In this document: one piece after another, positions 25,102 through 42,658 of the stretch
Layout of the letters: each line of letters begins with the position of its first letter
Position numbering within the stretch: the first letter of the stretch is position 1
Assembly: GCA_024636495.1 (NCBI GenBank)
Contig: JAGXGZ010000028.1
Location: 30,750 to 94,749, forward strand
DNA from: Roseobacter sp.
GTDB taxonomy: Bacteria > Pseudomonadota > Alphaproteobacteria > Rhodobacterales > Rhodobacteraceae
Direction of reading: 5' to 3'
Length of the DNA: 64,000 nucleotides
Position numbers and translations under genes: made by a program
The notes under the pieces: model-generated
The model's database searches: none
What the model was told of the DNA's origin: nothing
The model's input: the letters and a program-made list of their open reading frames with translations, nothing else

Positions 25102-25114
25102 AACTTAAGGATAT
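25100..25114. promoter_or_regulatory. LysR recognition box (T-N11-A dyad) overlapping the lysR start codon
   Basis: ATAAC-TTAAG-GATAT, dyad ATA-N9-TAT. Confidence 0.55.
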
Positions 25115-25186
25115 ATTAAAGGGCTGTCTTTTGATCAAGTTCCAATTGGCGATCAGTTAGCATGCTTACAAAGGGAGGAGTCTGCC

Positions 25187-26257
25187 GTGACACAGGCTGT
25201 GAAATCAATCTGCGGCGGTGACGCTGTGCGGGTTCAGTTCGGTGCAGGCGTTCGCAAGACTGTCGCTGCCGAAGTTGCGCGTTTAGGTGCGACGCGGGCC
25301 ATGGTTGTGTCCACGCCAGCGCAATCCAGCCTTGCGATGGAAATCGCTGCAACGCTTGGGCCAGCTGCGGCGGGTATTTTCAGCAAGGCTGAGATGCACA
25401 CGCCTGTCGCAGCAACGCTAGAGGCTTTGGAACATCTGAAAAGTTGTGGTGCGGACTGCATTGTTGCTGTCGGCGGCGGGTCGACTATCGGTTTGGGAAA
25501 AGCGCTTGCCTACCGTACGGACCTGCCACAGATCGCCATCCCGACCACCTATGCAGGCAGCGAGGCAACGCCGGTATTGGGCCAGACGGAAAATGGCGTC
25601 AAAACCACGCTCAGCGATCCAAAGGTCCTGCCAGAGGTTATTCTTTATGACGCAGAGCTTGTTGCCACTTTGCCGGTTGGAATGACCGTAACATCCGGGC
25701 TAAATGCGATGGCGCACGCCGCTGAGGCGCTTTATGCGCCAACCCGCAGTGCGGCGTCGAACGCTTTGGCCGTTGACGGGTTGAACGCTTTTGTTGATGG
25801 CCTGCCACGTGTCATTGCTGACCCGGAAAATCTGTCTGTCCGCGAAGATACGTTACGCGGTGCTTGGGCATGCGGGGCGGTTTTGGGCCAAGTAGGGATG
25901 GGTTTGCACCACAAGCTGTGTCACACGCTTGGTGGTGCGTTCAATCTGCCCCACGCGCCGACGCACGCGGTTATTCTGCCGCACGCGATAGCGTATAACG
26001 CCCGCAGCGCTGCCGCCCAGCTTGCCCCGATTGTCGAGCTTCTTGGCGGTGATAATGCCGGAGCCGCCCTGTATGACTTCGCGAAATCACTTGGCGCACC
26101 GCTTGCTTTGCGCGATCTTGGTCTGACGGAGGATGACCTTGACCGTGCCACCGCGCTGGCCACATCGAAACCCTATCCCAATCCCCATCCGCTAAGCGCA
26201 CCTGGTATTCGGGCGTTGCTACAGGCGGCATGGGCCGGGGAAACACCTGTAATCTAA
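25187..26257 (+). CDS. Maleylacetate reductase
   Basis: GGGSTIGLGKA, PTTYAGSE, NAMAHAAE and MGLHHKLCHTLGG motifs. Confidence 0.9.
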   Translation: MTQAVKSICGGDAVRVQFGAGVRKTVAAEVARLGATRAMVVSTPAQSSLAMEIAATLGPAAAGIFSKAEMHTPVAATLEALEHLKSCGADCIVAVGGGSTIGLGKALAYRTDLPQIAIPTTYAGSEATPVLGQTENGVKTTLSDPKVLPEVILYDAELVATLPVGMTVTSGLNAMAHAAEALYAPTRSAASNALAVDGLNAFVDGLPRVIADPENLSVREDTLRGAWACGAVLGQVGMGLHHKLCHTLGGAFNLPHAPTHAVILPHAIAYNARSAAAQLAPIVELLGGDNAGAALYDFAKSLGAPLALRDLGLTEDDLDRATALATSKPYPNPHPLSAPGIRALLQAAWAGETPVI

Positions 26258-26284
26258 CGACATAGACGTCTGGGAGGACACCAT

Positions 26285-27559
26285 ATGATCACGCGACGCA
26301 AACTGCTTAAATCCACGGCTGCAACCGGACTGACACTGGCAGCAAGCGGGCTTGCCGCTCCGGCGCTTGCCCAAGGTGCAAAGATCAAACTGGGCTACGT
26401 CAGCCCGCAATCGGGACCATTGGCGGCATTTTCCGAAGCTGACCAGTTTATCATCCAGGGATTCCTTGGCTCGGATGCAGGGGCCAATTTCGAAGTTATC
26501 GTCAAAGACAGCCAGTCGAACCCGAACCGCGCGGCGGAAGTCGCCAAGGAACTGATCTTGGATGACGGGATCGACATGATGCTCGTCGCATCGACCCCCG
26601 AGACAACAAACCCCGTCGCGACCACCTGCGAAGCCGAGGAAATCCCTGTACTGTCGACCGTAGCGCCTTGGCAGCCCTATTTCATCGGGCAGCAGGGTAA
26701 TCCCGGTGATCCGGCATCTTGGCGGCCCTTCGATTTCAGCTTTCACTTTTTCTGGGGGTTGGAAGACGTCATCAGCGTCTTTACCGCAATGTGGAACCAG
26801 CTTGATACCAACAAGCAGGTCGGCGGCCTTTTTCCCAATGACGGGGATGGCAACGCATGGGGCGATCCGAACGTAGGCTTTCCACAGCCTCTGGCGGCAC
26901 AGGGGTACGGGCTGACCGATCCGGGTCGCTACCAGAACCTGACCGATGATTTCAGCGCCCAAATCAACGCATTCAAAGCCGCAAATTGCGAAATCGTCAC
27001 CGGCGTGCCGATCCCGCCAGATTTCACCACCTTCTGGACGCAGGCAAAACAGCAAGGGTTCGCGCCGAAAGTCGCCAGCATCGGCAAGGCGATCCTGTTC
27101 CCGCAAGCGGTAGAGGCTTTGGGCGATCAGGGCCACAACTTAAGTTCCGAGGTCTGGTGGTCGCCGTCCCACCCCTTTGCATCTTCGCTGACCGGGCAAT
27201 CGGCGGGCGATCTTGCGGCAGGCTATGCCGCTGAAACGGGCAAGCAATGGACACAGCCCATCGGATTTGCCCACGCGCTGTTCGAGATGGCCGCCGACGT
27301 CATGGGTCGTGTCGATGATAGCCGCGACCCCGATAAAGTCACCGCCGCGATTGCCGCGTCTCAGCTGAACTCTATCGTTGGTCGTATTGCTTTTGATGGC
27401 GCGGGCCTGCCACCCTTTGCAGCCGCAAACGTTGCGAAGACCCCCTTGGTCGGGGGGCAATGGCGTCTGAAAGACGGAGGCGGGTATGATTTGGTGATCG
27501 TGGATAATTCCGATCACGCCGAAATCCCGACAGGCGGCACGATGGAAGCCATCGTTTAA
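26285..27559 (+). CDS. ABC solute-binding protein (HAAT/LIV-type) with twin-arginine signal
   Basis: ITRRKLLK Tat motif, KDSQSNPNRAAE, type-1 periplasmic binding protein pattern. Confidence 0.88.
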   Translation: MITRRKLLKSTAATGLTLAASGLAAPALAQGAKIKLGYVSPQSGPLAAFSEADQFIIQGFLGSDAGANFEVIVKDSQSNPNRAAEVAKELILDDGIDMMLVASTPETTNPVATTCEAEEIPVLSTVAPWQPYFIGQQGNPGDPASWRPFDFSFHFFWGLEDVISVFTAMWNQLDTNKQVGGLFPNDGDGNAWGDPNVGFPQPLAAQGYGLTDPGRYQNLTDDFSAQINAFKAANCEIVTGVPIPPDFTTFWTQAKQQGFAPKVASIGKAILFPQAVEALGDQGHNLSSEVWWSPSHPFASSLTGQSAGDLAAGYAAETGKQWTQPIGFAHALFEMAADVMGRVDDSRDPDKVTAAIAASQLNSIVGRIAFDGAGLPPFAAANVAKTPLVGGQWRLKDGGGYDLVIVDNSDHAEIPTGGTMEAIV

Positions 27560-27607
27560 CGTATCTTTGGGGGCGCGGGGCAACCCCGCCCCATCAGGAA
27601 ATCTGCC

Positions 27608-28324
27608 ATGATCCTTTCGCTTGAAAATGTATCCAAGTCCTTTGGGGCTTTGACGGTGACCGACAGCGTCACTTTTGAGGTGCCTCAGGGGCAGGCGCTT
27701 GGGATTATCGGACCGAACGGGGCCGGTAAATCGACCCTGTTCAACCTGATCACCGGCAATATCCGGGCCGATCAGGGCCGCATTCACTTTGAGGGTCGCG
27801 ATGTGACACGCGTGTCTGCGATGGAGCGCTGTCTGACCGGGATCGGGCGTTCTTTTCAAATCCCTCAGCCGTTTGAAAAGCTGACGGTGTTCGAGACCCT
27901 TTTGGTGGCCGCCACCCACGGGCGCAACATGTCCGAGGCTGCGGTTGTGGAGGATTGTGCCGATATTTTGGTTCGCACCGAATTGATCGGACGGGCCAAT
28001 ACACCCGCCGGTCAGCTTTCCTTGCTTGAGCGTAAACGGCTGGAGCTTTCGCGCGCGATGGCCACGCAGCCAAAACTGCTGTTGCTTGACGAAATTGCGG
28101 GCGGCCTGACCGAGGGCGAATGCCGGGCTTTGATCGCCACGATCAAGGACATCCACGCGCAAGGTGTCACAATTATCTGGATCGAACACGTGCTTCACGC
28201 GCTGACCTCGGTGGTTGAAAGGTTGCTGGTGCTGGATTTTGGCAAGATCATCGGGATCGGTGCGCCCGAGGCTATTATGGCCTCGAAAGAGGTCCAGGAG
28301 ATATATCTGGGGATCGAAGTCTGA
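27608..28324 (+). CDS. ABC ATP-binding protein (LivG-like)
   Basis: GPNGAGKST, LLLDEIAGG. Confidence 0.92.
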   Translation: MILSLENVSKSFGALTVTDSVTFEVPQGQALGIIGPNGAGKSTLFNLITGNIRADQGRIHFEGRDVTRVSAMERCLTGIGRSFQIPQPFEKLTVFETLLVAATHGRNMSEAAVVEDCADILVRTELIGRANTPAGQLSLLERKRLELSRAMATQPKLLLLDEIAGGLTEGECRALIATIKDIHAQGVTIIWIEHVLHALTSVVERLLVLDFGKIIGIGAPEAIMASKEVQEIYLGIEV

Positions 28325-29031
28325 TGGCGCTTTTGCATACAGACGGGCTGACCGCCCATTACGGTGATTTCCAAGCACTGTTCGGCGTGGATATCACGCT
28401 GGACCAATCCGAAGTGGTCGCGATCATAGGGGCCAATGGTGCGGGCAAGACAACGCTCATGCGGTCGATTTCCGGTGTTTTGCGCAATGCACCTGGGATG
28501 GTCCGGTTTGACGGGGCGAATATCGGCGGCCAACCCGCTGATGAAATCATGGCTCAAGGTGTTGCGATGGTGCCCGAAGGCCGCAAGCTTTTCCCCTCGC
28601 TCAGTGTTGAAGAGAACCTGCTGATCGGCACCTACGGGCGCAAGACCGGGGGGCACTGGAACCTCAAAACCGTTTATGACCTGTTCCCGATCCTGCGCGA
28701 GCGTCGGAACAACCCCGGCACGGCTTTATCGGGTGGCCAACAGCAGATGGTCGCAATCGGCCGCGCCCTGATGAGCAATCCGCGCGTGCTGCTGTGTGAC
28801 GAGATCAGCCTTGGGCTGGCCCCAGTGGTGATCAAGGACATTTACAAAGCCGTGCCCGCGATCAAAGCGGCAGGCGCGTCCCTGATCGTGGTCGAGCAGG
28901 ACATCGGGCAGGCGATGGCTGTCGCTGACCGGGTTTATTGCATGATGGAAGGTCGCGTGACCCTGTCCGGCACGCCCGACACCCTTAGCCGCGAGGCGAT
29001 CCACAACGCGTATTTCGGAGCGGCGGCATGA
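28324..29031 (+). CDS. ABC ATP-binding protein (LivF-like)
   Basis: GANGAGKTT, LSGGQQQM, VPEGR. Confidence 0.92.
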   Translation: MALLHTDGLTAHYGDFQALFGVDITLDQSEVVAIIGANGAGKTTLMRSISGVLRNAPGMVRFDGANIGGQPADEIMAQGVAMVPEGRKLFPSLSVEENLLIGTYGRKTGGHWNLKTVYDLFPILRERRNNPGTALSGGQQQMVAIGRALMSNPRVLLCDEISLGLAPVVIKDIYKAVPAIKAAGASLIVVEQDIGQAMAVADRVYCMMEGRVTLSGTPDTLSREAIHNAYFGAAA

Positions 29032-29891
29032 TCTGGGTGGATACGATCGTCCAAGGTATCCTGTTGGGCGGGCTCTATGCGCTTTTTGCTGCGGGGCTAA
29101 GCCTTGTGTTCGGGATCATGCGATTGGTCAATCTGGCGCATGGCGATCTGATCGTTATGGGGGCTTATCTGATCTTGGTTCTGGTGACGCTGCTAGGCCT
29201 TTCGCCCTTCATCGCTGTGCTGATCGCCATGCCGATCATGTTTGCGCTGGGCTGGGGGCTGCAAAAATTCCTGCTCAACCGCACGCTGGGAGACGATATC
29301 CTTCCGCCGCTTCTGGTGACCTTTGGTCTGTCAATTGTGCTGCAAAACGCCCTTCTTGAAGGGTTCACGGCAGACAGTCAGCGGTTGCCCACGGATGCGC
29401 TAACGACGGCCTCGGTGCAGGTCGGGACGATCTCGCTCGGGGTTATGCCGCTGCTGACATTTGCATCGGCGATTTTGGTGATCATCGGGCTGAACCAGTT
29501 GTTTTACCGCACCTCGCTGGGCCGCGCGTTTCGTGCCACGTCGGATGATCCGGTCACGGCCAGTCTGATGGGCATCAAGCCCGCAAACATTTTTGCTGTG
29601 GCCACTGGCATTGCGATGATCATCGTCACGATTGCTGCCCTTTACCTTGGGCTACGCTCAAACTTTGATCCCAACATCGGGCCAGCGCGGCTGATCTACG
29701 CCTTCGAGGCGGTGATCATTGGCGGGTTGGGATCGCTGTGGGGCACGCTGGTCGGCGGGATCATCATCGGTGTCGCGCAAACTGTTGGTGCCGCGATCAA
29801 CCCCGAATGGCAAATCCTTGCCGGACATATCGCGTTTCTGGTGGTGCTGCTGATCCGCCCGCGCGGGCTTTTTCCAAGGGCACATGACTGA
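29028..29891 (+). CDS. ABC permease (LivH-like)
   Basis: GLSLVFGIMRLVNLAHG motif. Confidence 0.92.
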   Translation: MIWVDTIVQGILLGGLYALFAAGLSLVFGIMRLVNLAHGDLIVMGAYLILVLVTLLGLSPFIAVLIAMPIMFALGWGLQKFLLNRTLGDDILPPLLVTFGLSIVLQNALLEGFTADSQRLPTDALTTASVQVGTISLGVMPLLTFASAILVIIGLNQLFYRTSLGRAFRATSDDPVTASLMGIKPANIFAVATGIAMIIVTIAALYLGLRSNFDPNIGPARLIYAFEAVIIGGLGSLWGTLVGGIIIGVAQTVGAAINPEWQILAGHIAFLVVLLIRPRGLFPRAHD

Positions 29892-30940
29892 TGGCTTACA
29901 CCGTTCGAACACGTACCCGCGCTTCGGGGATTGCAGCGATCATTGGGGCAGCAATAGTCCTTGCGCTGGTCTTCTTGCCGCTTTTTGCCAGCCGCTCGTT
30001 GATTCAGGACATGTTTTTGATCCTGACCATGCTGGTGCTCGCGCAGTTCTGGAACTTGCTGGCGGGCTATGGCGGGCTGGTCAGCATCGGGCAACAGGCT
30101 TTTGTCGGCATGGGGGCCTATACGCTGTTTGGCGTGGTCATTTTGGGCGGGATTGACCCGGTGGCAGCGATCTTGTTTTCAGGGCTGGGTGCGCTGATCA
30201 TTGCCATTCCCACGGCCTTTTTCGCGTTTCGCCTGAATGGCGCGTATTTCGCCATCGGCACATGGGTCATCGCCGAGGTCGTGCGCCTGCTGGTCGCGCA
30301 ATGGAAAACCTTGGGCGGTGGGACCGGCACGTCACTCCCCCGCGAGGCGACGCGCGACATGTGGTTCGTGCCGACGGTTGAGACCCTGTTGGGCGTCAGA
30401 TCTGCTGCCGCCCGCGATATCCTGGCCTATTGGCTGGCGCTTGCCTTGGCTGTCGCCACAATCGGCGGGATTTATTGGCTGCTGCGTACCCGGCGCGGTC
30501 TGGCGCTGGCCGCGGTGCGCGATAACATCGAGGCCGCAAAATCCGTTGGTGTCGATGCGGTGCGGATGAAATGGATCGTGTTCCTGACCTCGGCCTTTGG
30601 CACAGGCCTCACCGGCGGGCTGATCTACATGCAAAAGGCGCGCATCAGCCCCGATGCGGCCTTTAGCGTGACCGACTGGACGGCTTACGTGATCTTTATC
30701 GTGGTCATTGGCGGTATCGGAACGATCGAGGGCCCGATCCTTGGTGTACTGATCTTTTTTGCCCTGCAATCCTTGCTGGCTGATTTCGGCAGCTGGTACC
30801 TCATGACGCTTGGCGTGCTTGCGATCACCATCATGCTTGTCGCACCGCGCGGCCTTTGGGGCTTGCTGTCAGAGCGCACAGGCCTTCACCTTTTCCCCGT
30901 CCGGCGTCAGCTGGTCGCCCCCAAACCATCGGAGACATAA
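29891..30940 (+). CDS. ABC permease (LivM-like)
   Basis: WNLLAGYGGLVSIGQ, GAYFAIGT, IGGIGTIEGP. Confidence 0.92.
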   Translation: MAYTVRTRTRASGIAAIIGAAIVLALVFLPLFASRSLIQDMFLILTMLVLAQFWNLLAGYGGLVSIGQQAFVGMGAYTLFGVVILGGIDPVAAILFSGLGALIIAIPTAFFAFRLNGAYFAIGTWVIAEVVRLLVAQWKTLGGGTGTSLPREATRDMWFVPTVETLLGVRSAAARDILAYWLALALAVATIGGIYWLLRTRRGLALAAVRDNIEAAKSVGVDAVRMKWIVFLTSAFGTGLTGGLIYMQKARISPDAAFSVTDWTAYVIFIVVIGGIGTIEGPILGVLIFFALQSLLADFGSWYLMTLGVLAITIMLVAPRGLWGLLSERTGLHLFPVRRQLVAPKPSET

Positions 30941-30941
30941 A

Positions 30942-32705
30942 ATGGCTGATATCGAAACCGAAGTTCTTGTTATCGGCACCGGGCCTGCCGGATCAACGAC
31001 GGCTGCCTTGTTGTCAACTTACGGTGTGCCCAACGTCGTGATCAATCGCTATCATTGGCTGGCCAATACCCCGCGTGCGCATATCACCAATCAACGCACG
31101 ATGGAGGTTCTACGCGATCTTGGCCGCGAGGTCGAAGACGAGGTTTATCTTAACGCGATGGATCAAAGCCTGATGGGCGAGAACGTTTTCTGCGAAAGCC
31201 TCGCAGGCGAGGAAATCGGTCGGATGAAGTCCTGGGGCACGCATCCCCTGTCCAAGGCGGAACATCTGCTATCCTCGCCGTCTTTCATGAACGATCTGCC
31301 CCAGACCTTTATGGAACCAATCCTGTTCAAGACCGCTTGCAAGCGTGGCACCCGCGCCCGGATGAGCACAGAGTATCAAAGCCATGTTCAAGACGCCGAC
31401 GGTGTCACAACGACATGCCTTGATCGGATGACAGGGCAACAGATTACCATTCGTTCGAAATACCTTGTCGGTGCTGATGGCGGCAATTCTTTGGTCGCCG
31501 AAACGGAAAATCTACCCTTTGAAGGCCAGATGGGCGTGGGCGGGTCGATGAACATCTACTTTCGGGCAGATCTGTCCAAATACGTCAAACACCGCCCGTC
31601 GGTTCTTTATTGGGTGATGCAACCCGGTGCTGACGTGGGCGGCATCGGCATGGGGCTTGTGCGCTGCATCCGCCCTTGGAACGAATGGCTGATCGTTTGG
31701 GGGTATGACATCAACGAACCGGCCCCCGTCGTGGATGCCAAGATGGCGACCGATGTGGCGCGCCAACTGGTGGGTGATCCCGAACTGGAGATCGAGCTGA
31801 TCAACGCCAATACGTGGACTGTGAATGACACCTATGCCACGCAAATGTCCAAGGGACGTGTGTTCATTATGGGCGACGCGGCGCATAGACACCCGCCGTC
31901 TAACGGGCTGGGGTCGAACACGTCTATTCAGGATGCATTCAATCTGGCATGGAAGCTGGCCGCCGTGCTTAAAGGGCAGGCGGGTCCGGCATTGCTTGAC
32001 AGCTATACAACCGAACGCGCCCCGATTGCCAAGCAGATCGTGACCCGTGCCAACCAGTCTATCGGAGAGTTCGGCCCGATTTTCCAGGCATTGGGCATGA
32101 CCGGTGGCACGGATGTCGAAAAAATCCAGGCAAACATGGATGCGCGCTGCGATTCCACGCCAGACGCCGAAGCGCAGCGCACCGCGTTGAACGAGGCGAT
32201 TGCTTTCAAGAAGTACGAATTTGATGCGCACGGCGTCGAGATGAACCAACGCTACTGTTCAGATGCGATCGTGACCGACGGGCAGATGGAGCCTGATTTC
32301 ACCCTTGACGCGGATCTGCACTACCAGCCCACCACGTGGCCGGGGGCCCGTATTCCTCATGTCTGGCTGTTCGATGCGCAGGGCAACAAATGCTCGAGCT
32401 TGGATCTTGCCGGGCACGGCGTGTTCACGCTGTTCACCGGGCTGGGCGGCAAGGCATGGGCGGACGCGGCGGCGCAGGTTGCGTCAGACATGGGCATCGT
32501 GATCGAGGCGCATGTGATCGGACCACGCCAGCAGTATGTTGACCACACTGGCGATTGGGCGCGCGCGCGCGAAGTGGGCGATGCCGGGTGCATCATCACG
32601 CGCCCCGACCAACATGTCTGCTGGCGTCATGACGGCGGCGAGGTTGATCATGCAAGCGAGCTTTTGCGTGTGTTGCGTACAATTCTTGCAAAACAGGAGG
32701 GCTAA
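30942..32705 (+). CDS. Single-component FAD-dependent phenol monooxygenase (TfdB/resorcinol-hydroxylase-like)
   Basis: GTGPAG, PRAHITNQRTME, LVGADG, GDAAHRHPPSNGLGSNT, C-terminal thioredoxin-like RPDQHV. GGAGA upstream of ATG 30942. Confidence 0.88.
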   Translation: MADIETEVLVIGTGPAGSTTAALLSTYGVPNVVINRYHWLANTPRAHITNQRTMEVLRDLGREVEDEVYLNAMDQSLMGENVFCESLAGEEIGRMKSWGTHPLSKAEHLLSSPSFMNDLPQTFMEPILFKTACKRGTRARMSTEYQSHVQDADGVTTTCLDRMTGQQITIRSKYLVGADGGNSLVAETENLPFEGQMGVGGSMNIYFRADLSKYVKHRPSVLYWVMQPGADVGGIGMGLVRCIRPWNEWLIVWGYDINEPAPVVDAKMATDVARQLVGDPELEIELINANTWTVNDTYATQMSKGRVFIMGDAAHRHPPSNGLGSNTSIQDAFNLAWKLAAVLKGQAGPALLDSYTTERAPIAKQIVTRANQSIGEFGPIFQALGMTGGTDVEKIQANMDARCDSTPDAEAQRTALNEAIAFKKYEFDAHGVEMNQRYCSDAIVTDGQMEPDFTLDADLHYQPTTWPGARIPHVWLFDAQGNKCSSLDLAGHGVFTLFTGLGGKAWADAAAQVASDMGIVIEAHVIGPRQQYVDHTGDWARAREVGDAGCIITRPDQHVCWRHDGGEVDHASELLRVLRTILAKQEG

Positions 32706-32708
32706 GCA

Positions 32709-33590
32709 ATGTCTACGCAAGAAAAAGGGTATTTCACCGAGGAAAACTCCGCCGATGTTGTGGTGTCGCGGATCGGGCCGTCAACCGATGCGCGGCTTGC
32801 GCGGGTCATGGCCGCGATCACGCGTCATTTGCATGCCGCGGTAAAGGAGGTTGAGCCCACCCAAGAAGAATGGATGGCGGCCATCCAGTTTTTGACCAAG
32901 ACCGGACATAAATGCGACGACTGGCGTCAGGAGTTCATTTTGCTAAGCGACGTGATGGGCGTCTCGATGCTGGTTGATGCGATCAACAACCGCAAGCCAT
33001 CGGGTGCCTCCGAAAGCACGGTTTTGGGTCCTTTTCATGTGCCCGATGTGCCGGAATTGCCGATGGGGGCGAACATCTGCCTGGACGGCAAAGGGGACCC
33101 TATGCTGATCAAGGGCCGGATTGTCGGGACAGACGGCGCGCCGCTTGCGGGGGTCAAGCTTGATGTCTGGCAGACCAACGACGACGGCTTTTACGACGTC
33201 CAGCAAAAAGGTATTCAGCCCGACTTTAATCTGCGGGGGGTATTTCGCACAGCCGACGACGGGACCTATCACTTTTGGGGCGCAAAGCCACGTTTTTATC
33301 CGATCCCCGATGACGGCCCGGTGGGGCAGCTGCTGGGCAAGCTGGGACGGCACCCTTACCGTCCCGCGCATCTGCATTTCATTTTGGAGGCGGCAGGGTT
33401 CGAGACGCTGATCACCCATATCTTTGATCCCGACGACAGGTACATCCACTCGGACGCCGTGTTTGGGGTCAAGGAAAGCCTTTTGGCCAAGTTTGATCTG
33501 ATCGAAGATCCGGTGCGCATTTCAGCCGAAGGTGCCCAAGGCCCGTTCTATGAGGTCGTGCATAATTTCGTCCTCGCGCCGACAACATGA
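32709..33590 (+). CDS. Intradiol ring-cleavage dioxygenase, hydroxyquinol 1,2-dioxygenase type
   Basis: RQEFILLSD, LGPFH, GFYD, FYPIPDDGPVG and RPAHLH iron-ligand motifs. Confidence 0.88.
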   Translation: MSTQEKGYFTEENSADVVVSRIGPSTDARLARVMAAITRHLHAAVKEVEPTQEEWMAAIQFLTKTGHKCDDWRQEFILLSDVMGVSMLVDAINNRKPSGASESTVLGPFHVPDVPELPMGANICLDGKGDPMLIKGRIVGTDGAPLAGVKLDVWQTNDDGFYDVQQKGIQPDFNLRGVFRTADDGTYHFWGAKPRFYPIPDDGPVGQLLGKLGRHPYRPAHLHFILEAAGFETLITHIFDPDDRYIHSDAVFGVKESLLAKFDLIEDPVRISAEGAQGPFYEVVHNFVLAPTT

Positions 33591-33621: not shown

Positions 33622-34172
33622 AGCCTTGTTGCAAAAATCGGTCTGAGGGTGAGTGGACCCCATTTGCCAAAGGGACTTAGCCTTCTGCCGGGGTGACAGG
33701 TATGCAATAAGGGAGTAGCGGTTGAGGACCGCGTTGCGGGTTTGGATTTCCGCGACCTGCCTTTCAAAGTTTCGCGCCATGAACGACTGGCCAGTATAAT
33801 CAAACAATGCGCTTTTGTTTCAACGCGGCTTCGGCGGTGGTATCGGCGTCCCCAAATACCGTTGGGCGTAGGCCGGATCGAGGCGGCATTTGCTTCGGCG
33901 CGCGTCCACTTCCCGGCAGTGCATGCCCGCATGCTCAAGAGGGGGCTTAAAAAGGCTTGGCATTCTTGCGCGGTGGGACGACCATATGCGTGTCTTGGGC
34001 GGCAATTGCCTTGCGGCATTTACGGGTGTCATGCGCCCCGTCTTCGGTAACACTGCCGATGTGTTGATCGGATGGGATTTGGTTCAGCAGCTTGGGTAGC
34101 ATGGGTGTATGCGCGATGGTGCTGCTGATGACTACGAAGGCTCGTACTTCCCGCGTTTCGTCGTCGATACCC
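33622..34172 (-). pseudogene. Decayed 3' half of an IS5-family (IS903-group) transposase with right inverted repeat
   Basis: Fragments GIDDETREVRA...DGAHDTRKC...PPRKNAK, YHRRSRVETK and RQVAEIQTRNAVLN lie in different frames. AGCCTTGTTGCAAAAATC at 33622 resembles the IS903 end GGCTTTGTTGAATAAATC. Confidence 0.8.
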
Positions 34173-34458
34173 CCTCTCGGCAGCATGTTGTGCATGCGCC
34201 TGTCGAAACGGCAGCATGACGCTTGGCAGGCAGAACGCGATCTTCGGTCTCGTCCGAGGTTGAGGTCTTTTCGCCGCGTGTGACCCAGACTTGCAGGTCG
34301 TTGACCGCATAGACGACACGCCCCCCGATTTTGGAGTAGTGCGGGCCGGTTCCGTAGGTGCGATGTTTCTCGAGGGTGCGGCCTGAAAGGCCGAGGAAAT
34401 GGGCGGCTTCAGGGGTTCTGAGGTAGCGGGGCGGAATTCCTTCGTTGGGGTCGGGCAT
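34132..34458 (-). CDS. rdfS: AlpA/MerR-like HTH excisionase (RdfS-like recombination directionality factor); tail runs into IS DNA
   Basis: RYLRTPEAAHFLGLSGRTLEKHRTYGTGP..SKIGGRVVYAV is the typical ICE RdfS signature; GGAGA RBS. Confidence 0.85.
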   Translation of the reverse strand: MPDPNEGIPPRYLRTPEAAHFLGLSGRTLEKHRTYGTGPHYSKIGGRVVYAVNDLQVWVTRGEKTSTSDETEDRVLPAKRHAAVSTGACTTCCREGVSTTKRGKYEPS

Positions 34459-34634: not shown

Positions 34635-35138
34635 TTATTTGCGCCGTTTGTTCTGTTTTGTTGGACCTCGACCGAGAAGCAAAAGGCGATAGCCTTTGTT
34701 GGTCAGGTGCGTTCCATGGGCAGATAGGCGGATGATCTGGGCCTTAAGGGATCTGGTCTTCCAGTGCTCGCGCGACACCGCTTCCGCACCGAATAAATGC
34801 CGCGCGATTTGCTGGTAACTGGCGCTGTCCCGACGCGCATCAAGCGTGCGAAGCGCAAGCAGAATGCGGCGGCGTTGCTGCATGGTTAGGGGCGAAACTG
34901 ATCGTTTGCGGTTTGTCAGTTGTGCGTGAAGTGACTTGAGCGCTTCCAGGCGGACCGTCCAATGTTCGTCCAGTGGCAGCAAGATGCCAGCAGGGCGGTT
35001 AATTGTCTTTGCGTCCAGAACGACCAAAGCACCGGTTGGCAGACGCACATACATCTGACCGTCCTGCGTCCCGATGACGGTGAGATCATCTTCATCGATG
35101 CGGCGCAGGTGTTTCGTCTCCAGGAACTGGCGCAACAT
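34635..35138 (-). CDS. fseA: DUF2285-domain 3' part of an FseA-like activator
   Basis: ALRTLDARRDSASYQQIARHLFG...W...SLKAQIIRL...GYRLLL pattern; lies between the DUF6499 ORF and rdfS. Confidence 0.8.
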   Translation of the reverse strand: MLRQFLETKHLRRIDEDDLTVIGTQDGQMYVRLPTGALVVLDAKTINRPAGILLPLDEHWTVRLEALKSLHAQLTNRKRSVSPLTMQQRRRILLALRTLDARRDSASYQQIARHLFGAEAVSREHWKTRSLKAQIIRLSAHGTHLTNKGYRLLLLGRGPTKQNKRRK

Positions 35139-35206
35139 ATCCGACCGCCGCCGGAGCGACGGATGGGTTCCAGAACAGGCGAGCGTTTAGGGCGTCGATA
35201 TCCGGA

Positions 35207-35377
35207 TCAACCGGGAAATCGTAACCCCCATGCAGCCAGCGATTTTTGTCCTTCCCGCAACTGCGGGTAATCTGCGCGATAATCGGAATTGCGGCGCAAA
35301 CATTCCCAAGCCATCCCGGACAAATCCAGGCTCTTGAAATGTGCATATGCCGCATCGTCGCGCCAGTCCTTGGTCAT
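35207..35377 (-). CDS. fseA: DUF6499 5' part of an FseA-like activator (msi172-like), ending in a frameshift motif
   Basis: WRDDAAY, AWECLRRNSDY and AWGLRFP; GGAG RBS before ATG 35377. Confidence 0.82.
   Translation of the reverse strand: MTKDWRDDAAYAHFKSLDLSGMAWECLRRNSDYRADYPQLREGQKSLAAWGLRFPG
35213..35233 (-). other. +1 programmed ribosomal frameshift motif
   Basis: GCA TGG GGG TTA CGA TTT CCC fits the msi172-type TGG.GGN.NTN.NNN.TTT.C consensus as I recall it; the +1 frame continues FPVDPD...LFW. Confidence 0.75.
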
Positions 35378-35507: not shown

Positions 35508-35780
35508 TCAGCCTTTGCGGCCCTCTAGCAGCTTGCGGTAGCCGTGTTCCGTCATCCAACGCGCGTGGGCGAGGTGGCTGTCATAGACAATTTGAGCGCG
35601 GTCCGGTTCCTTTTCCGCATCGATTCCGAACAGAATCTGGCAGATTTCCTGTAAAGTGGCCCCGCTTTCTGCAGCATCGAATAGGCGCAGATAGAGCGTC
35701 ATGTGCGCGTGGTCATATTCGGTCAAAGAGTCGCCCTGTGGTGCAAGGTCAGAGATCGGCGCGGTGCCGGTAGTAGGCAT
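35508..35780 (-). CDS. qseM: QseM-like antiactivator
   Basis: LTEYDHAHMTLYLRLFDAAESGA...ILFGID...PDRAQIVYDSHLAHARWMTEHGYRKLL matches the QseM family; divergent from an XRE gene. Confidence 0.8.
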   Translation of the reverse strand: MPTTGTAPISDLAPQGDSLTEYDHAHMTLYLRLFDAAESGATLQEICQILFGIDAEKEPDRAQIVYDSHLAHARWMTEHGYRKLLEGRKG

Positions 35781-35921: not shown

Positions 35922-36143
35922 ATGGATATCCGCGTTATTTTTGCAAGGAATCTAAAGCACTACCGCGAACAGCGCGGGCTAACGCAGGCCGCATTGGCCG
36001 CGGCAATGGATGTCGACCGCGCCCATGTCAGCGCGATGGAGCGTGCCAAACAAAACGTGACCTTGCAGACCCTTCAGCGTCTGGCGGAGCATTTGGAGCT
36101 GGAGCCAGCGAAGCTGATCAAAGAACGTGCCGATAGCGTGTAG
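35922..36143 (+). CDS. qseC: XRE-family controller protein, QseC-like
   Basis: FARNLKHYREQRGLTQAALA...DRAHVSAMER...NVTLQTL HTH_3 pattern; no obvious SD sequence. Confidence 0.82.
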   Translation: MDIRVIFARNLKHYREQRGLTQAALAAAMDVDRAHVSAMERAKQNVTLQTLQRLAEHLELEPAKLIKERADSV

Positions 36144-36256: not shown

Positions 36257-36574
36257 CTACGGCTTGCGTGACTTGCTGCGCTGGGTCCAATCGGCCCCGG
36301 CATAGGTCACGGCGTGGATATACACCTCGCGCGCGTTGTCATCGACGGTGAAGGCGACCAAGGCCTTTCGGCCTGCAGGAATTGCGCGCAGCCCGGGCGC
36401 GATCTCATCGCGGCGACTGCCCTTGTGCGGAACGTCTGCCAAACTACCGATGGTTGCCTCTATCTCGTCCAGTCGACGCGCAGCCGATTGCGGACCGGAA
36501 TAGTCGATCAGCCAGCGCGCGATGGCACCAAGATCGTCCGCGACCGCCGGATGAAGCCGGACGCGATAGCTCAC
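36257..36574 (-). CDS. Type II toxin, RelE/ParE family
   Basis: YRVRLHPAVADDL...PHKGSRRDEIAPGLR; overlaps the upstream antitoxin. Confidence 0.85.
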   Translation of the reverse strand: MSYRVRLHPAVADDLGAIARWLIDYSGPQSAARRLDEIEATIGSLADVPHKGSRRDEIAPGLRAIPAGRKALVAFTVDDNAREVYIHAVTYAGADWTQRSKSRKP

Positions 36575-36840
36575 GCTTCGCGCGCGGCCTGCAGCCGGGC
36601 CCGTGCAGGGGCAAACGTGTCCTCGGCCGAAACATAGTCAGCACGCGGTGTCTCAAGACGCACTCTGATCTCCTCGGCCATCGCCCCAAGGGCCAACTCG
36701 CGTTCTTCTTCATCACGGATCATCTGTTCAAGCGCCGTCGCGACAGCCGCGCTTTGTGAAGCGAAAACGCCTTGTCCGACCTTGTCGGTAAGGAACCGAT
36801 GGTGGCGGTCGGTGAAGCTCAGCGTTGTTTTGACGGTCAT
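36571..36840 (-). CDS. ParD-like ribbon-helix-helix antitoxin
   Basis: KTTLSFTD...G.FASQSAAV RHH pattern, acidic tail, GGAGG RBS. Confidence 0.82.
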   Translation of the reverse strand: MTVKTTLSFTDRHHRFLTDKVGQGVFASQSAAVATALEQMIRDEEERELALGAMAEEIRVRLETPRADYVSAEDTFAPARARLQAAREA

Positions 36841-36854
36841 GGCGGCCTCCAGGG

Positions 36855-37056: not shown

Positions 37057-37788
37057 CTATTTATTTTGTTGTGTTCGATTGTAAAGCTCGCGGACAAAAA
37101 CTGAATGCTGCCCTTTCTGAAATACAACATGTAGCTCTTGCTCTGAGCGGGTCACGGCGACATAGAATTCACGCTTTTCAGCGTTCATCTTATTCGGATC
37201 GCTCTTGCTTCGCCAATTTGGTATTACGTCATTGTTCATTCCCAGCAGGGTGACAGCGCGAAATTCTCGACCTTTTGAACTGTGAAACGTGCTTAGGTTA
37301 ATAGCGCCAGTTCCGGAAGAGTATCCACAAAACTGAGCCATTTTGAGGTCCGCGCCGCCTTTCTTGGCGGGGTCTGTCCTCCCAATCATTTCATCTACAT
37401 TATCCCAGTGTTCCGATATCGTGCGCGTTCGAGCAAACCAAGGTGATAAAATATCGCGTTTGAAGTCGAGCAGCCAAGAGTGGGTCGAGGCCGCCCCGTC
37501 CATAGGGATAAGGAAGGTAATGAGCTCATGTTCAATTTGGCGCTTCTCCTCATCCGAGGCGGTCCCGCCGTACACCAAAGAAATCGCATCATAGTAAAGC
37601 CGCTGAAATCTTGGTTCAGCAGTTTTCCAACCTCCGACAACCCATTGAGCGCATCTTTCTACAAACCTCGAAACTGGCGAGTTTCTCTTTATCAGGGCTT
37701 TGTTGTCTGCCCGTACCACTGGCACACCTTTGAAACCGGAGGCCGTCGAACTCAGCCTGCAGGCGATGTTCTTTGCTGGGCTTTCCAT
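37057..37788 (-). pseudogene. Chimeric ORF: short ICE-derived N-terminus fused to the C-terminal half of a UvrD/SF1 helicase
   Basis: Motif V STFHSSKGREF and motif VI REFYVAVTRSE present, no Walker A/B; low GC; GAGGAGG RBS before MESPAKNIACRL. Confidence 0.7.
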
Positions 37789-37816
37789 CGATGCCTCCTC
37801 TCTTTGGTGGGGATGG

Positions 37817-37845
37817 AAAAAGGGCCCACCGTTTCCGATGGGCCC
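37817..37845 (-). terminator. Intrinsic terminator after parB
   Basis: Minus strand reads GGGCCCATCG-GAAA-CGGTGGGCCC-TTTTT. Confidence 0.7.
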
Positions 37846-37904
37846 AAGGTGTCCGGTGGGGCGGGCGGCCTGGGGGACGGTTTGGGCCCGACCAACCGGA
37901 TGCG

Positions 37905-39965
37905 TCACTCGGCAGCTGTCTTGGCGAAGGCGTCCGTGGCGACGGGATCATCGTCGCCCGACACTTCGGAATCTCCGATAGCCGGTTCGCCGCCGTCTTC
38001 CGCCGTTTGCTCTTCGCTTGTGTTGGTGTCTTCAACCGAAGCCGATTCATCGAGGTTGTCGACTAGTTCGAATGCCGGGCCATCCTCCGCCGGCAGTGGC
38101 GGCGTGCGCAGCGGTTCCGGCAGCCAGCCGGTGCCCGCCAGCAGATCCTCTGCAGCAGTGACCATCTCCGGCTTCTTGAGGCCTGAGATGCGGTCGGCGG
38201 CGTTCTCGCCCTTCGCTTCGTGAACGGCCTCGAGGATGCGGGCCTTGGTCACGCGACCGAGATAGCTGTCGCCCGTTACCACCCAGCCAACCTTGGCCAT
38301 GTCGAGCCCGACAGTCCCGGCCAGCACATCCGCATGCGCGATCGCGTGGGGGCGGCGCTGGTAGGGATCGTGGACGGCATTCACGCTCATCGCCACGCAG
38401 TGTGCGAGCAGCGCCTCGCGGCTGCAACTGTCGAACTCGGTCAGCGCCTCCCAGAGGTCTTCCGACGCCTTGGGCAGATTGCGCGCCCAGGTCTCGTGCC
38501 GCTGATCGATGGCCTGCGCATAGGCCGTGTCGCCAAGGCCCAGCACTTGCGACCCGAAGGCCGCGTTGCGCGGTTCGATCTCGACGCAGCTGTCGATGCC
38601 GTAACGGTAGAACAGCCGTAAAGTCATCGCATGGAGCGCCGCGAGGTAAGCGGCCTGCGGGTCCTGCGCCAGTGCATTGCGAAGCGCCAGAGTGCGATGC
38701 GCCGTCAACTCCATGATGAGGCGGTCGGAGAGCGGCTTGAGGCCATCTTCTTCCTCCTCGTCTTCGGCGGCGGGCGCGACGGTGTCGTCCGCATCCTCGA
38801 CGATCTGAGTTTTAGCATCGGCGTCGCCGGTCTCCTCCATTTCCTCGACCAGTTCGTCTTCAGCCCGCACATGGCCGCGCTCGACGCGCAGCCGCCCAGA
38901 ACTGTCGATGCTGACAAAGGCACCCGCCAAGGCCAAGTCTACCGCCTCGAACCGGATCGGGCGGTCCTGTAATGCTTCCATCGCCGTCTCGATTTCCCCG
39001 AGCCGTGCGTCGACCTCATCGGGCAACTCATCCACCTCGGCATGGTCGGCCTCGAGCGCGTCGTATTCGGCTTTCAGTGCCTGATAGTCGGCGGCCTCAA
39101 CGTCGCTCATCGGCTCTGCCTCGCCATGAATGCGCCGCATGCCAAAGGTGTGCCCATAGGGAAAGTCGGTGTCGACCTCGACCCACTTCCAGCCCTCGGC
39201 CCGGATCACTGCGGCCTCCTCGGCCAGCTTTTCGGTCACCATGACGTCGAGTAGGCTGGCGTCTTGCAGCCAGCCGCCGTCATCCTGCTGGAACAGGTCG
39301 CGCAGGATGTCGCCCCCGGCCTCGACATAGTTGTCGAGCCCCACGAACTGCGCCCGCTTGTCCGAGGCCCGCACCGCGCCCTCGGTCAGCATGCGGCGGA
39401 TTTCGTAGGGCTGCTTGGAATAGTGCCGCTGCAGCGCCTCCCAAACCTGTTCCTGCCGCGCGTGGTCAGGGTTGACCGTGAAGGCCATCAGCTGGTCGAG
39501 CGTCATTTCCTCCTCGGCGTAGACGTCATGCAGCGCGGGTGCGACGGCGGCGAGCTTCAGCCGCTGCTTGACCACGCTGGCCGAAACGAAGAAGGCGGCG
39601 GCGATCTCCTCCTCGGTGCAGCCCTTCTCGCGCATCGCCTGAAACGCGCGGAACTGGTCCAAAGGATGCAGCGGTGCGCGCTGGATATTCTTAGCCAGGC
39701 TGTCTTCTTCCGCGAGGCCATCCATGCGCACGACGCAGGGCACAAGGGCAGTCTTGTTCAGACGCTTCTGCTTTACGAGCAGCTCCAGCGCCCGGAACCG
39801 CCGCCCACCGGCTGGGATTGTGAACATGCCGGTCTCGGCACCGTTGTCGTCCAGCACGGGCCGCACGGTGATCGAGGCCAGCAGCGTCCGCCGGGCGATA
39901 TCCTCGGCCAGCTCCTCAATCGACACGCCCGCCTTGACGTGGCGCACGTTCGATTGGCTGAGCAT
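37905..39965 (-). CDS. ICE ParB/RepB/Spo0J-like protein, 5'-truncated
   Basis: LSQSNVRHVKAGVSIEELAEDI, GGRRFRAL and LHPLDQFRAF motifs; the usual ~20 N-terminal residues are replaced by DUF932 DNA. Confidence 0.8.
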   Translation of the reverse strand: MLSQSNVRHVKAGVSIEELAEDIARRTLLASITVRPVLDDNGAETGMFTIPAGGRRFRALELLVKQKRLNKTALVPCVVRMDGLAEEDSLAKNIQRAPLHPLDQFRAFQAMREKGCTEEEIAAAFFVSASVVKQRLKLAAVAPALHDVYAEEEMTLDQLMAFTVNPDHARQEQVWEALQRHYSKQPYEIRRMLTEGAVRASDKRAQFVGLDNYVEAGGDILRDLFQQDDGGWLQDASLLDVMVTEKLAEEAAVIRAEGWKWVEVDTDFPYGHTFGMRRIHGEAEPMSDVEAADYQALKAEYDALEADHAEVDELPDEVDARLGEIETAMEALQDRPIRFEAVDLALAGAFVSIDSSGRLRVERGHVRAEDELVEEMEETGDADAKTQIVEDADDTVAPAAEDEEEEDGLKPLSDRLIMELTAHRTLALRNALAQDPQAAYLAALHAMTLRLFYRYGIDSCVEIEPRNAAFGSQVLGLGDTAYAQAIDQRHETWARNLPKASEDLWEALTEFDSCSREALLAHCVAMSVNAVHDPYQRRPHAIAHADVLAGTVGLDMAKVGWVVTGDSYLGRVTKARILEAVHEAKGENAADRISGLKKPEMVTAAEDLLAGTGWLPEPLRTPPLPAEDGPAFELVDNLDESASVEDTNTSEEQTAEDGGEPAIGDSEVSGDDDPVATDAFAKTAAE

Positions 39966-40363
39966 CGGTGGTTGGTAAGTCCGTATTGGAGGTTGATGCC
40001 CGCCAACGGCGCGGGCAATTGACGCAGATAGGCGGCAGGCGCGCCGACGAGGCTGGATAACTGCCCAAAGCTCCAATGCGTTGGCGCGATGGGTTCGTCG
40101 GCACCGGGCAAGACGAGCCCCAACTTCTCAGGATTATCACGATGCGCCTCGACGCGGATCGCAGCGCTTTCCACCGTGCGCGTCCGGCTGCGCTCGGCCC
40201 GGCCCTTCACCGAAGCGAAGAGGTCGTCGAGCGACAGATACCGCTCGTCATCCGGCCGCGAGAACCATTCGGACGACACGCGGTCCACGTTTGTGCCGCG
40301 CGACACATCCACTTTGTAGCCGCCGTTGATGTCACGCCCGGCATCGATAATTTCGGTATTCAT
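39966..40363 (-). pseudogene. N-terminal third of a DUF932-family protein, truncated by deletion
   Basis: SSEWFSRPDDERYLSL and PTHWSFGQL...APAAYLRQLPAPLAGINLQYGL; homology ends at the parB junction. Confidence 0.8.
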
Positions 40364-40454: not shown

Positions 40455-41543
40455 TCACTCGGCTGCTAGGTGAGCGGACGGGAACGACGCGCGCGCCGCG
40501 GCTAGGCCATGCAACGCTTCCGGCCGAATATGCGTATAGCGGCGCAGCATCTTCCAATCCTTGTGCCCGGTAACCAGCGCGACCTGTTCGATGGCGAAGC
40601 CTGCTTCGAACAGACGACTTGTGCCTTCATGTCGCAAGTCGTGGAAGTGCAGGTCCTTGATATTGACCTCCACGCAGGCGCGCCGGAAGGCTGTTCCGAC
40701 AGATCGCGAATTGTAGGGAAACATCCGGCCCGTCGCGCGCCTAAGCTCCTTGGCCTGCGCCGTAACCAGCGCCCAGGCGTCGAACCCGGTTGCGGCAAAG
40801 AGCGGGATCCGCTGGTCGTTGCCAGTCTTGTTGCGCGGATCTTTCCGGTCGCGGATTAGGAGCATGCGCCGATCAAGGTCGAGATCCGTCCATTCGACCC
40901 GGTAAATCTCGTCGAGCCGCATCGCGGTGGCCACTGCAAACTGCACGATCCTAGTCATTGGCAGGGTGAGGCGTTCGTTGTCATCGAAGCAGCGGAAGAG
41001 CCGGTTCAACTCATCCTTAGTGGGTCGGCGATCCCGCTCGGTGCCCTTGCCGATCAGCCCGAGACGCTTGAGCGCAACACGGGCCAGATCAACGGGTTCC
41101 GAGGAGATGTCGAGGCCGTGTACGGCTGCAGCATGGGTTATGATCATCTTGGTTACGCCGATATCGATGCCAAGTGTCACCGGACCTGCGCCTTGCTCCG
41201 CGCGCATCTTGCCATAATCGATCATCTTTTGGCGATCCAGGTGCCCGATCCGTTCCTTGCCCAGATCGCGCTTCAAGGCGGAAAGGGTCGCGGCCTTGCT
41301 GCGGCGCGGTGGTTTGCCTACCTCGCACATATCGATTATGTGAAGATCGATGAGATCGCCAAAAGTTGCAAGGCGGGACACGGATGACTTGTTCGGGGCC
41401 AACCCCTGATCCACTCGGGTCTCGGCCTGGCGGGCCCAGCGGTGGGCGTCATCGCGCAGGAGAAATGTCTTGCTCGCGTAGCGGCCCTTTCGTCTGATCT
41501 GGACCCGGTAAGCACCGGAGGGGAGTTTTGTGATGGAGGCCAT
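40455..41543 (-). CDS. int: Tyrosine integrase, dusA-associated type
   Basis: AMRLDEI (R), RKDP (K), HDLRH, GH and RRYTH (Y): catalytic set appears intact; divergent from dusA. Confidence 0.92.
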   Translation of the reverse strand: MASITKLPSGAYRVQIRRKGRYASKTFLLRDDAHRWARQAETRVDQGLAPNKSSVSRLATFGDLIDLHIIDMCEVGKPPRRSKAATLSALKRDLGKERIGHLDRQKMIDYGKMRAEQGAGPVTLGIDIGVTKMIITHAAAVHGLDISSEPVDLARVALKRLGLIGKGTERDRRPTKDELNRLFRCFDDNERLTLPMTRIVQFAVATAMRLDEIYRVEWTDLDLDRRMLLIRDRKDPRNKTGNDQRIPLFAATGFDAWALVTAQAKELRRATGRMFPYNSRSVGTAFRRACVEVNIKDLHFHDLRHEGTSRLFEAGFAIEQVALVTGHKDWKMLRRYTHIRPEALHGLAAARASFPSAHLAAE

Positions 41544-41656
41544 TTTCGTGTGCGCTGTGTGTGCAATGAGTCGTCGTAGAGGGGCAAATTCGGGGGTATT
41601 GGGGCGTAGTGCAGCGTAGCAGCAACCGCCGCCAACAGTTTAAAGATACACAAAAA

Positions 41657-42658
41657 ATGCAAATAAATCAACACGCTAGATTATCTATTGCGCCTATGAT
41701 GGATTGGACAGACCGCCATTGCCGCTATCTGCACCGGCTCATGTCCAGACACGCGCTGCTTTACACCGAAATGGTGACGTCGCCCGCGCTTGTGCGTGGT
41801 GGGGCGCTTCATTTGTTGGATCACAACCCGCAAGAGCATCCTGTCGCGTTGCAATTGGGGGGATCGGACCCGGACGAACTGGCCGAGGCCGCCCGGATTG
41901 GTGCGCAGGCGGGATATGATGAGATTAACCTTAACGTTGGCTGCCCGTCTGACCGGGTGCAATCGGGCAGTTTCGGCGCTATTTTGATGGAGCAGCCTGC
42001 GCTTGTGGCCAAATGCGTGGGCGCGATGCGCCGTGCGGTTGACGTTGAGGTGACTGTGAAGTGTCGCATTGGCGTGGATGATCAGGATCCCGAAGACATA
42101 CTCCCCGAGTTTCTGGCCCATATCGTGGGCGCAGGCTGCGAGCGGGTGACGATCCATGCGCGCAAGGCGTGGCTTAAGGGGTTAAGCCCCAAGGAAAACC
42201 GCGACATCCCGCCTTTGGATTACGATCTGGTGCACCGGATGAAGGGGCTGTTTTCGAACCTGCACATCTCGGTCAATGGGGGAATAACGAGCCTTGATCA
42301 GGCGGAGGCATTCCTAGAGGGTGGCCTTGACGGCGTGATGATCGGGCGCAGCGCCTACCACAATCCTGCGGAAATCCTTTGCCAGGCGGACCGGCGTATT
42401 TTTGGCAAAGGCGAAGACACAACTGCGGAAAATGCCGTTCAGCAGATGTTGCCCTATATTGACGCGCATATTGACGGGGGCGGCAGGCTTAACCAGATCA
42501 CCCGTCATATGATGGGGCTGTTCGCGGGGCGCCCCGGTGCGCGGATCTGGCGGCGGATGCTGTCGGAAAACGCCTCAGGGCCGGGGGCGGACCGTCAGGT
42601 TTTGCTGGATGCGCTGGATGCGATGCAAACGCTGGCAGAGGCGCAAGAAGCGGTGTAG
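41657..42658 (+). CDS. dusA: tRNA-dihydrouridine synthase A
   Basis: APMMDWTDRHCR, LYTEM, EINLNVGCPSDRVQSG, VKCRIG and HARKAWLKGLSPKENR motifs. Confidence 0.95.
   Translation: MQINQHARLSIAPMMDWTDRHCRYLHRLMSRHALLYTEMVTSPALVRGGALHLLDHNPQEHPVALQLGGSDPDELAEAARIGAQAGYDEINLNVGCPSDRVQSGSFGAILMEQPALVAKCVGAMRRAVDVEVTVKCRIGVDDQDPEDILPEFLAHIVGAGCERVTIHARKAWLKGLSPKENRDIPPLDYDLVHRMKGLFSNLHISVNGGITSLDQAEAFLEGGLDGVMIGRSAYHNPAEILCQADRRIFGKGEDTTAENAVQQMLPYIDAHIDGGGRLNQITRHMMGLFAGRPGARIWRRMLSENASGPGADRQVLLDALDAMQTLAEAQEAV

Follow-up and report, generated by a model that had tools for sequence, protein, structure and literature searches.

A probable fseA pseudogene with a retained programmed +1 frameshift site and a second, mutational frame break in a stranded ICE remnant of Roseobacter sp.

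The window, that is, the whole stretch of 64,000 nucleotides of Roseobacter sp. DNA that was analysed, contains an fseA-like gene on the minus strand, the parts of which are distributed over three reading frames (Table 1). The most upstream of these parts, frame A, encodes an Msi172-like protein, MTKDWRDDAAYAHFKSLDLSGMAWECLRRNSDYRADYPQLREGQKSLAAWGLRFPG, which carries the motif AWECLRRN at residues 23–30 and matches PF20109 (Trans_reg_dom, formerly DUF6499) in Pfam, with an E-value of 7.9e-18. This 56-aa gene was also called on the Logan contigs. The run of codons with which it ends had already been identified in the first-pass annotation, and its coordinates and frame were recovered unchanged. 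Frame B, which is opened by skipping the C after TTT (35218–35216), reads PVDPDIDALNARLFWNPSVAPAAVGYVAPVPGDETPAPHR. As had been proposed, it is homologous to the FseA relatives, here as far as ...TPAP, after which it adds only H and R before a premature TGA, an arrangement borne out by both the frames and the alignment of the homologues.

The third frame, frame C, is closed upstream by a TAA at 35189–35187, and holds an ORF that combines 13 out-of-frame residues (MLRQFLETKHLRR) with 154 native residues, which correspond to the middle domain and the DUF2285 HTH domain of FseA. The tblastn matches of this ORF in the relatives begin at residues 12–14. The ORF matches PF10074 (RovC_DNA-bd, formerly DUF2285; E 1e-24) in Pfam, and its assignment to a third frame is upheld by the frame itself and by the domain. 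The DUF2285 fragment is strongly basic (pI 11.9, net charge +18), and a phmmer search with the read-through protein recovered RovC (PDB 6XZ5) over residues 171–230, with an E-value of 1.7e-5. The top PDB sequence matches, the “Cake” designer propellers, were discounted, given their repeat-inflated score over a 26-residue stretch. No NCBIfam model matched FseA, QseM or RdfS, and a megablast search of the PLSDB plasmids with the locus returned just two irrelevant 95-nt Pseudomonas matches. Both of the ORFs carry the domains first assigned to them, PF20109/DUF6499 and PF10074/DUF2285, respectively. Given the stop codon of frame B and the location of the DUF2285 domain in the third frame, neither a +1 nor a −1 slip at the motif would yield a full-length protein, and the frames agree with the first-pass annotation on this point.

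Table 1. Coordinates of the features at the fseA-like locus and in its surroundings (window positions).
Feature	Position	Strand	Remarks
IS5-family transposase, internal fragment	33947-34203	minus	abuts the truncation; Pfam DDE_Tnp_1
rdfS-like excisionase/RDF gene (HTH_17)	34458-34204	minus	PF12728; ORF end 34132
Candidate FseA box TGACGT-N16-TCGTCA	34572-34545	minus	inverted hexamers upstream of rdfS
Frame-C ORF	35138-34635	minus	167 aa, DUF2285
2-nt deletion site	35099-35101	minus	alignment to homologous loci and public-run contigs
+1-frame segment (frame B)	35214-35092	minus	40 codons, premature TGA 35094-35092
+1 PRF motif TGG GGG TTA CGA TTT CCC GGT TGA	35230-35207	minus	end of frame A
msi172-like ORF (frame A)	35377-35207	minus	56 aa, ATG 35377, TGA 35209-35207
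QseM-like antiactivator gene	35508-35780	minus	90 aa, DUF2285 only; PF10074 E 1.3e-9
QseC-like XRE-family HTH regulator	35922-36143	+	73 aa; Pfam HTH_3 E 1.3e-14
ParD-ParE toxin-antitoxin pair	36257-36843	minus	PF05016; TIGR02606 E 6.7e-5, below curated cut-off
UvrD C-terminal-domain-only ORF	37057-37908	minus	283 aa
ParB-like protein gene	37905-40076		723 aa
Tyrosine integrase	40455-41543	minus	dusA end of the putative remnant; PF00589 E 2.6e-22
dusA	41609-42658	+	PF01207 Dus E 1.1e-79

The FseA of ICEMlSymR7A is encoded by msi172 and msi171, which are joined by a +1 slip of the tRNA-Phe, from UUU to UUC, at a site with a conserved G-rich region upstream and an efficiency of 4–13% (PMC4755241). 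The conserved residues WGL beside this slip site are encoded by the RBS-like sequence UGGGGG, and two-ORF genes with the slip site make up approximately 61% of 4709 curated homologues (PMC10359603). In the window, the slippery UUU-C is found at 35218–35215, the G-rich UGGGGG at 35230–35225, and the stop codon of frame A at 35209–35207, which places a UUUC, with UGGGGG (WGL) before it, close to where the DUF6499 ORF ends, as is characteristic of the FseA family. The earlier suggestion of an intact +1 site of the msi172-msi171 type is thus in accordance with the published UUUC and UGGGGG elements (PMC4755241, PMC10359603). In a DNA alignment of the fseA gene, which includes 26 sequences (the window and 25 loci), conservation is highest in the 30-nt segments over the motif, where 0.77 of the columns are invariant, versus 0.51 overall, and the motif is nearly invariant in the homologues. 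On this basis, the first break appears to be the known, conserved +1 PRF site of FseA.

Some variants of the slip site were also observed. At position 35215, UUU-C is replaced by UUU-U in one of the public runs described below (X8) and in one homologous locus (L024), both of which read CGA TTT TCC GGT TGA, which may permit the perfect re-pairing of the tRNA-Phe after the +1 shift. Locus L002 has CCC AGT where the others have CCC GGT, and L025 has CCC TGT.

The second frame break was compared with a set of 26 homologous loci of the Rhodobacterales and related MAGs, recovered by a scan of representative genomes, with amino-acid identities of 69–79%. All of these loci cover the junction, except for L004, which spans the downstream frame only. 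In the 25 junction-covering loci, the DUF6499 ORF ends alike, with RF[PS][GSC] before the stop codon (mostly RFPG), and the single +1 frame remains open through the whole of the DUF2285 domain in all but one (L026). The sole internal gap in the window's row of the 26-sequence DNA alignment is of 2 nt, after 35101, where the sequence is GCGCCG--CATCGATG in the window, GCGCCGCTCATCGATG in the closely related alleles, and GCGCCGCACATCGATG in most of the distant homologues. The window allele has CCGCATC at 35099–35101, versus CCGCTCATC in the allele with the two nucleotides. In the protein, the junction reads ...PAAVGYAVPVPGGDTAAPHIDADDLTVIGTQDG... in the homologues, and in the window, either ...PAAVGYVAPVPGDETPAPHR followed by the stop codon (frame B) or ...RRIDEDDLTVIGTQDG... 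(frame C). The deletion lies where the gene is least conserved (0.20–0.23 invariant columns), in the linker that connects the N-terminal domain to the middle domain. A single indel between about 35140 and 35095 had been predicted in the first-pass annotation, which named the alignment with intact homologues as a means of placing it; this alignment, together with the contigs of six public runs (X3–X8), locates a 2-nt deletion at 35099–35101, at the 3' edge of that interval.

The one exception among the junction-covering loci, L026, is the MAG chromosome of an uncultured alphaproteobacterium, and has a 1-nt insertion of its own at approximately 3150–3170, equivalent to window position 34934, by which the region of fseA that encodes DUF2285 is divided between two frames. 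This insertion represents either an independent pseudogenisation or an assembly indel error, and in either case indicates that sporadic breaks or errors do occur in fseA.

The same region is represented in the contigs of a number of public sequencing runs. Runs X1 and X2 (SRR13628065 and SRR13628066) are cold-spring metagenomes from a single study, and are thus independent runs, not independent populations. Their Logan contigs match the window without a single mismatch (100% identity) over 12,347 and 15,010 nt, at a word depth of approximately 12, and both contain the deletion and the junction at 34204. This evidence consists of contigs assembled run by run with a different pipeline, and contigs drop rare variants; a minority intact allele may be present in the source population. 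The contigs of runs X3–X8, by contrast, carry the two nucleotides, in the form of a GA inserted behind 35099 on the plus strand. These six runs come from four other studies, and include plant and plastic metagenomes, together with two organism-labelled runs. Their coding strand reads CCG CTC ATC GAT GAA, which encodes ...TPAPLIDEDD... in one continuous +1 frame.

Compared piece by piece, the X3–X8 contigs are 95–100% identical to the window. In X3 and X4, identity is 100% over 346–380 nt, while five of 628 nt differ in X5, identity is 97.3% across 1.7 kb in X6, and X5–X8 are about 99% identical around the deletion site. Apart from the X1 and X2 contigs, the exact 167-aa ORF is recorded in just one longer contig, by a count of the matches. 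Given these comparisons, the deletion is private to the lineage of the window, and also recent, having arisen in a sequence that is locally the same as that of an intact allele.

The candidate FseA box upstream of rdfS has hexamers that are invariant, or nearly so, across the window and the 26 homologous loci, with a variable spacer. The FseA box of PrdfS has a 6-16-6 geometry (PMC10359603), which the candidate box shares, the comparison being one of geometry, not of the sequence of the R7A box. The rdfS of the window is formed by native codons 1–85 of 93, followed by 23 foreign codons, and is 94% identical to the RdfS of the intact relative L001 in tblastn, over residues 1–85 only. The DNA homology with every relative ends at 34200–34205, in most cases at 34204, and the adjoining IS5 fragment corresponds to positions 145–217 of the 289 positions of the NCBIfam profile transpos_IS5_2. 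The contigs of X6, X7 and X8 continue beyond 34200 into a normal rdfS 3' end, which encodes ...PAYLRRGR before the stop codon, and the truncation is thus also private to the window's lineage. As the C-terminal 25 aa of the R7A RdfS are dispensable (PMC11963761), the truncated rdfS may, by analogy, still be active, and the remnant is not provably inert.

Two further observations refer to the IS5 fragment and its vicinity. A segment of 33 nt within the fragment (34170–34202) has a depth of 44–485 in runs X1–X4, versus 6–12 in its flanks, and to either side of it, numerous short contigs diverge; this segment is probably a conserved core common to many IS copies in the respective communities. In addition, 109 nt are skipped between 33844 and 33954 in one of the X5 contigs, which has a depth of 25 and is probably an IS-related variant of another organism.

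The surroundings of the gene appear, from their gene content, to be a remnant of approximately 7.4 kb of a dusA-integrated ICE. In the direction away from dusA, the order is the integrase, the ParB-like gene, the UvrD C-terminal-domain ORF, the ParD-ParE pair, the qseC-like and qseM-like genes, fseA, the candidate box, and rdfS. The predicted QseM-like protein contains a DUF2285 domain without DUF6499 and is acidic (pI 5.2), and its gene is divergent from the QseC-like XRE gene, a combination that is consistent with the QseM type. The 283-aa ORF matches positions 545–621 of the pcrA profile, that is, a UvrD/PcrA-type C-terminal domain alone, and its start overlaps the stop codon of the 723-aa ParB-like gene; it may have been left over from a helicase, or may encode a small accessory protein that belongs to this ICE family. 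In some relatives, approximately 1.4 kb of extra DNA is found between the ParD-ParE pair and the qseC-like gene.

In L001, rdfS is followed by genes for a DUF2840 protein, an S26 peptidase (TraF), and an SLT lytic transglycosylase, an arrangement that resembles the rdfS-traF-msi107-rlxS operon of R7A (PMC11963761). No DUF2840, TraF, lytic transglycosylase or other transfer genes were found in the 64 kb, either by tblastn or in a Pfam survey of the larger ORFs, and this survey recovered only metabolic, transport and housekeeping genes over the whole of the window. The element thus has an integrase, a truncated rdfS, and no transfer module within the 64 kb, which is not the composition of a functional ICE.

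Directly past the IS5 fragment, at 24151–33590, there is an aromatic-catabolism cluster, which includes genes for an intradiol (catechol/hydroxyquinol-type) dioxygenase, an FAD aromatic-ring hydroxylase, and a LysR regulator, as well as a branched-chain-type ABC transporter and an Fe-alcohol dehydrogenase that resembles maleylacetate reductases. This cluster may be either ICE cargo or part of the chromosome. At 40–2775, on the plus strand, the window encodes a 911-aa protein with 12 matches to RTX calcium-binding repeats and a C-terminal Hint_2 domain.

Genomic islands may be integrated at dusA by dusA-specific tyrosine integrases. As in these islands, the integrase of the window is found directly beside, and divergent from, the AT-rich 5' end of dusA. 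Unlike the complete islands, only one end of the element is visible, with no second att site in the window and no transfer module. When the window was searched with 13-mers of the dusA 5' junction, no further att copy was found, the only match elsewhere being a chance one, at 10357. The X1 and X2 contigs break between 41587/41595 and 41645, with no contig across 41603–41633, and contain neither an empty site nor an excision joint at the dusA junction; the extra depth of these runs at the junction reflects the conserved dusA motif of other organisms. The 5' end of dusA (41587–41660) is unusually AT-rich in comparison with the surrounding DNA (aaagatacacaaaaaatgcaaataaatcaacacgctagattatctatt), which would fit a replacement 5' end supplied by the island, as occurs with the dusA-specific integrases.

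The closest known counterpart of the gene is the FseA (Msi172-Msi171) of the Mesorhizobium japonicum element ICEMlSymR7A. The two share an N-terminal DUF6499 domain with an AWEFLRRN-like motif (AWECLRRN in the window), and a basic C-terminal DUF2285 domain with an extended-turn HTH, which is indicated in the window by the Pfam and RovC matches and the charge. They also share the overlapping ORFs with a +1 slip at UUU-C after UGGGGG (WGL), a location upstream of rdfS, and neighbouring genes for an antiactivator (QseM-like, DUF2285) and an XRE regulator (QseC-like). FseA boxes of the family consist of inverted hexamers with a spacer of 15–16 bp, and the candidate box of the window, with its 16-bp spacer, has a geometry of this type. 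The QseM/QseC switch of ICEMlSymR7A also has its counterpart in an acidic, DUF2285-only gene of 90 aa divergent from an XRE gene of 73 aa, the two systems being likened by their domains, charge and arrangement.

Unlike the R7A fseA, the window locus has an extra, unprogrammed break, the 2-nt deletion, which leaves no full-length protein, and traR/traI quorum-sensing genes are missing from its vicinity. The order of the genes, qseC/qseM-fseA-rdfS, also differs from that of R7A, the homologues point to a host in the Rhodobacterales, and the element is cut after codon 85 of rdfS. The Yersinia T6SS transcriptional activator RovC (PDB 6XZ5) has the DUF2285 DNA-binding domain in common with the fseA of the window, but is encoded by a single ORF, without PRF, and is not an ICE regulator. 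In the FseA family, one +1 shift gives rise to a continuous, full-length protein, and this is not the case here. As the domains, motif and synteny of the family are all present, while this single-shift reading is not, the gene would be classified as a pseudogene of the FseA family.

The locus is thus very probably an fseA pseudogene, in which the programmed site has been kept and a 2-nt deletion acquired, within a stranded ICE remnant. The original fseA would have been of the common two-ORF type, requiring one low-frequency +1 slip at UUU-C, and the deletion would have removed CT or TC from CCG CTC ATC, in the poorly conserved linker. The majority of the ribosomes, which do not shift, would stop at the UGA at 35209–35207 and release a 56-aa DUF6499 peptide, whereas those that shift by +1 would reach the UGA at 35094–35092 after 40 more codons, producing a 94-aa N-terminal fragment. 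The activator of approximately 247 aa would be reachable by no route, which would make the gene a pseudogene. The proposal that the switch has been locked off is supported by the lack of a full-length frame, and the function of the activator would have been lost, judging from the reading frames. Both the msi172- and the msi171-encoded parts are required (PMC4755241), and the contacts between DUF6499 and DUF2285 are essential (PMC10359603), so that PrdfS would not be activatable in cis.

The remnant would extend from the integrase beside dusA to an rdfS that was truncated, at codon 85, by a deletion reaching into the IS5 transposase gene. With rdfS cut at codon 85 of 93 and the transfer operon absent from the window, the switch would have little left to control. 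The over-expression of rdfS is growth-inhibitory in Mesorhizobium R7A (PMC4755241), and given this, together with the disappearance of the transfer genes, the loss of FseA may have been neutral or mildly beneficial.

It is highly improbable that the true sequence contains the two nucleotides and encodes an ordinary, intact two-ORF fseA. The window is apparently derived from a metagenome, and X1 and X2 were seen as contigs, which would favour an artefact of this type. However, these two independently assembled runs reproduce the same sequence, at a depth of approximately 12 and with 0 mismatches over 12–15 kb, where a continuous +1 frame would have been expected had the break been an error of assembly, as the first-pass annotation had pointed out. 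The deletion site is not a homopolymer, and in the contigs of the other six runs, the difference of 2 nt is clearly resolved. The deletion is thus real, and unlikely to stem from an assembly error.

A second programmed recoding event, either a +1 shift or a bypass near CAU CGA UGA, would turn the gene into a doubly attenuated switch. The premature stop is located just two codons past the point at which the frames join, and in prfB, among other systems, +1 shifting can be promoted by a stop codon in the A site. This alternative, which was raised in the first-pass annotation, found no support in the comparison, as the break is present neither in the 26 homologues nor in the six closely related alleles, and there is nothing slippery at the site. 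The changes from CAU to AUC and from CGA to GAU would permit no tRNA re-pairing, no G-rich element is found upstream, and the independent insertion of L026 shows that fseA may be broken sporadically. The exact match to an intact allele over 346–380 nt would also have left no time for a recoding signal to evolve. In the absence of a conserved, slippery or stimulated second site, programmed double recoding is barely tenable.

It is unlikely, albeit conceivable, that the broken gene still gives rise to useful products that modulate the remnant or related incoming ICEs. The 56- and 94-aa DUF6499 peptides could titrate QseM, while a stand-alone protein of the middle domain and DUF2285, initiated at ATG 35138, could occupy FseA boxes without activating them. 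In R7A, residues 15–55 of FseA suffice for the binding of QseM, and DUF2285 bears a DNA-binding surface (PMC10359603), both of which are favourable to this possibility, as are the basic fragment (pI 11.9) and its acidic QseM-like neighbour (pI 5.2), and the intact candidate FseA box. The C-terminal fragment might be made from ATG 35138, where the SD-like pairing is comparable to that of real starts (a duplex of −6.2 kcal/mol, versus −5.8 to −6.6). However, 16.6% of all the minus-strand ATGs reach the same score (−6), and nothing suggests that the arrangement has been selected, given that the deletion is apparently very recent.

It is very unlikely, in turn, that the remnant as a whole is not junk, but a module that responds in trans or interferes. 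It would have retained the integrase, rdfS, the candidate box, QseM, QseC, the DUF6499 peptides, and possibly a DUF2285 fragment. If this were the case, the remnant could be triggered by the FseA of a related incoming ICE, or could dampen the activation of this ICE, with a defective element either hijacking or excluding its intact relatives.

The interpretation of the locus as an fseA pseudogene is of low significance in itself, given that the programmed site is textbook for the family and the second break would be ordinary gene decay. Automated annotation would nevertheless produce three small ORFs at this locus, for which fseA pseudogene would be the correct label. The locus also provides a clean natural example for the separation of programmed from mutational frameshifts, in that the programmed break shows nucleotide-level conservation across all of the relatives, whereas the mutational break is restricted to one lineage and to the least conserved linker. 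It would also illustrate a route to the immobilisation of an ICE, in which the transfer operon and the activator are lost, but not the antiactivator, the toxin-antitoxin pair, or the integrase.
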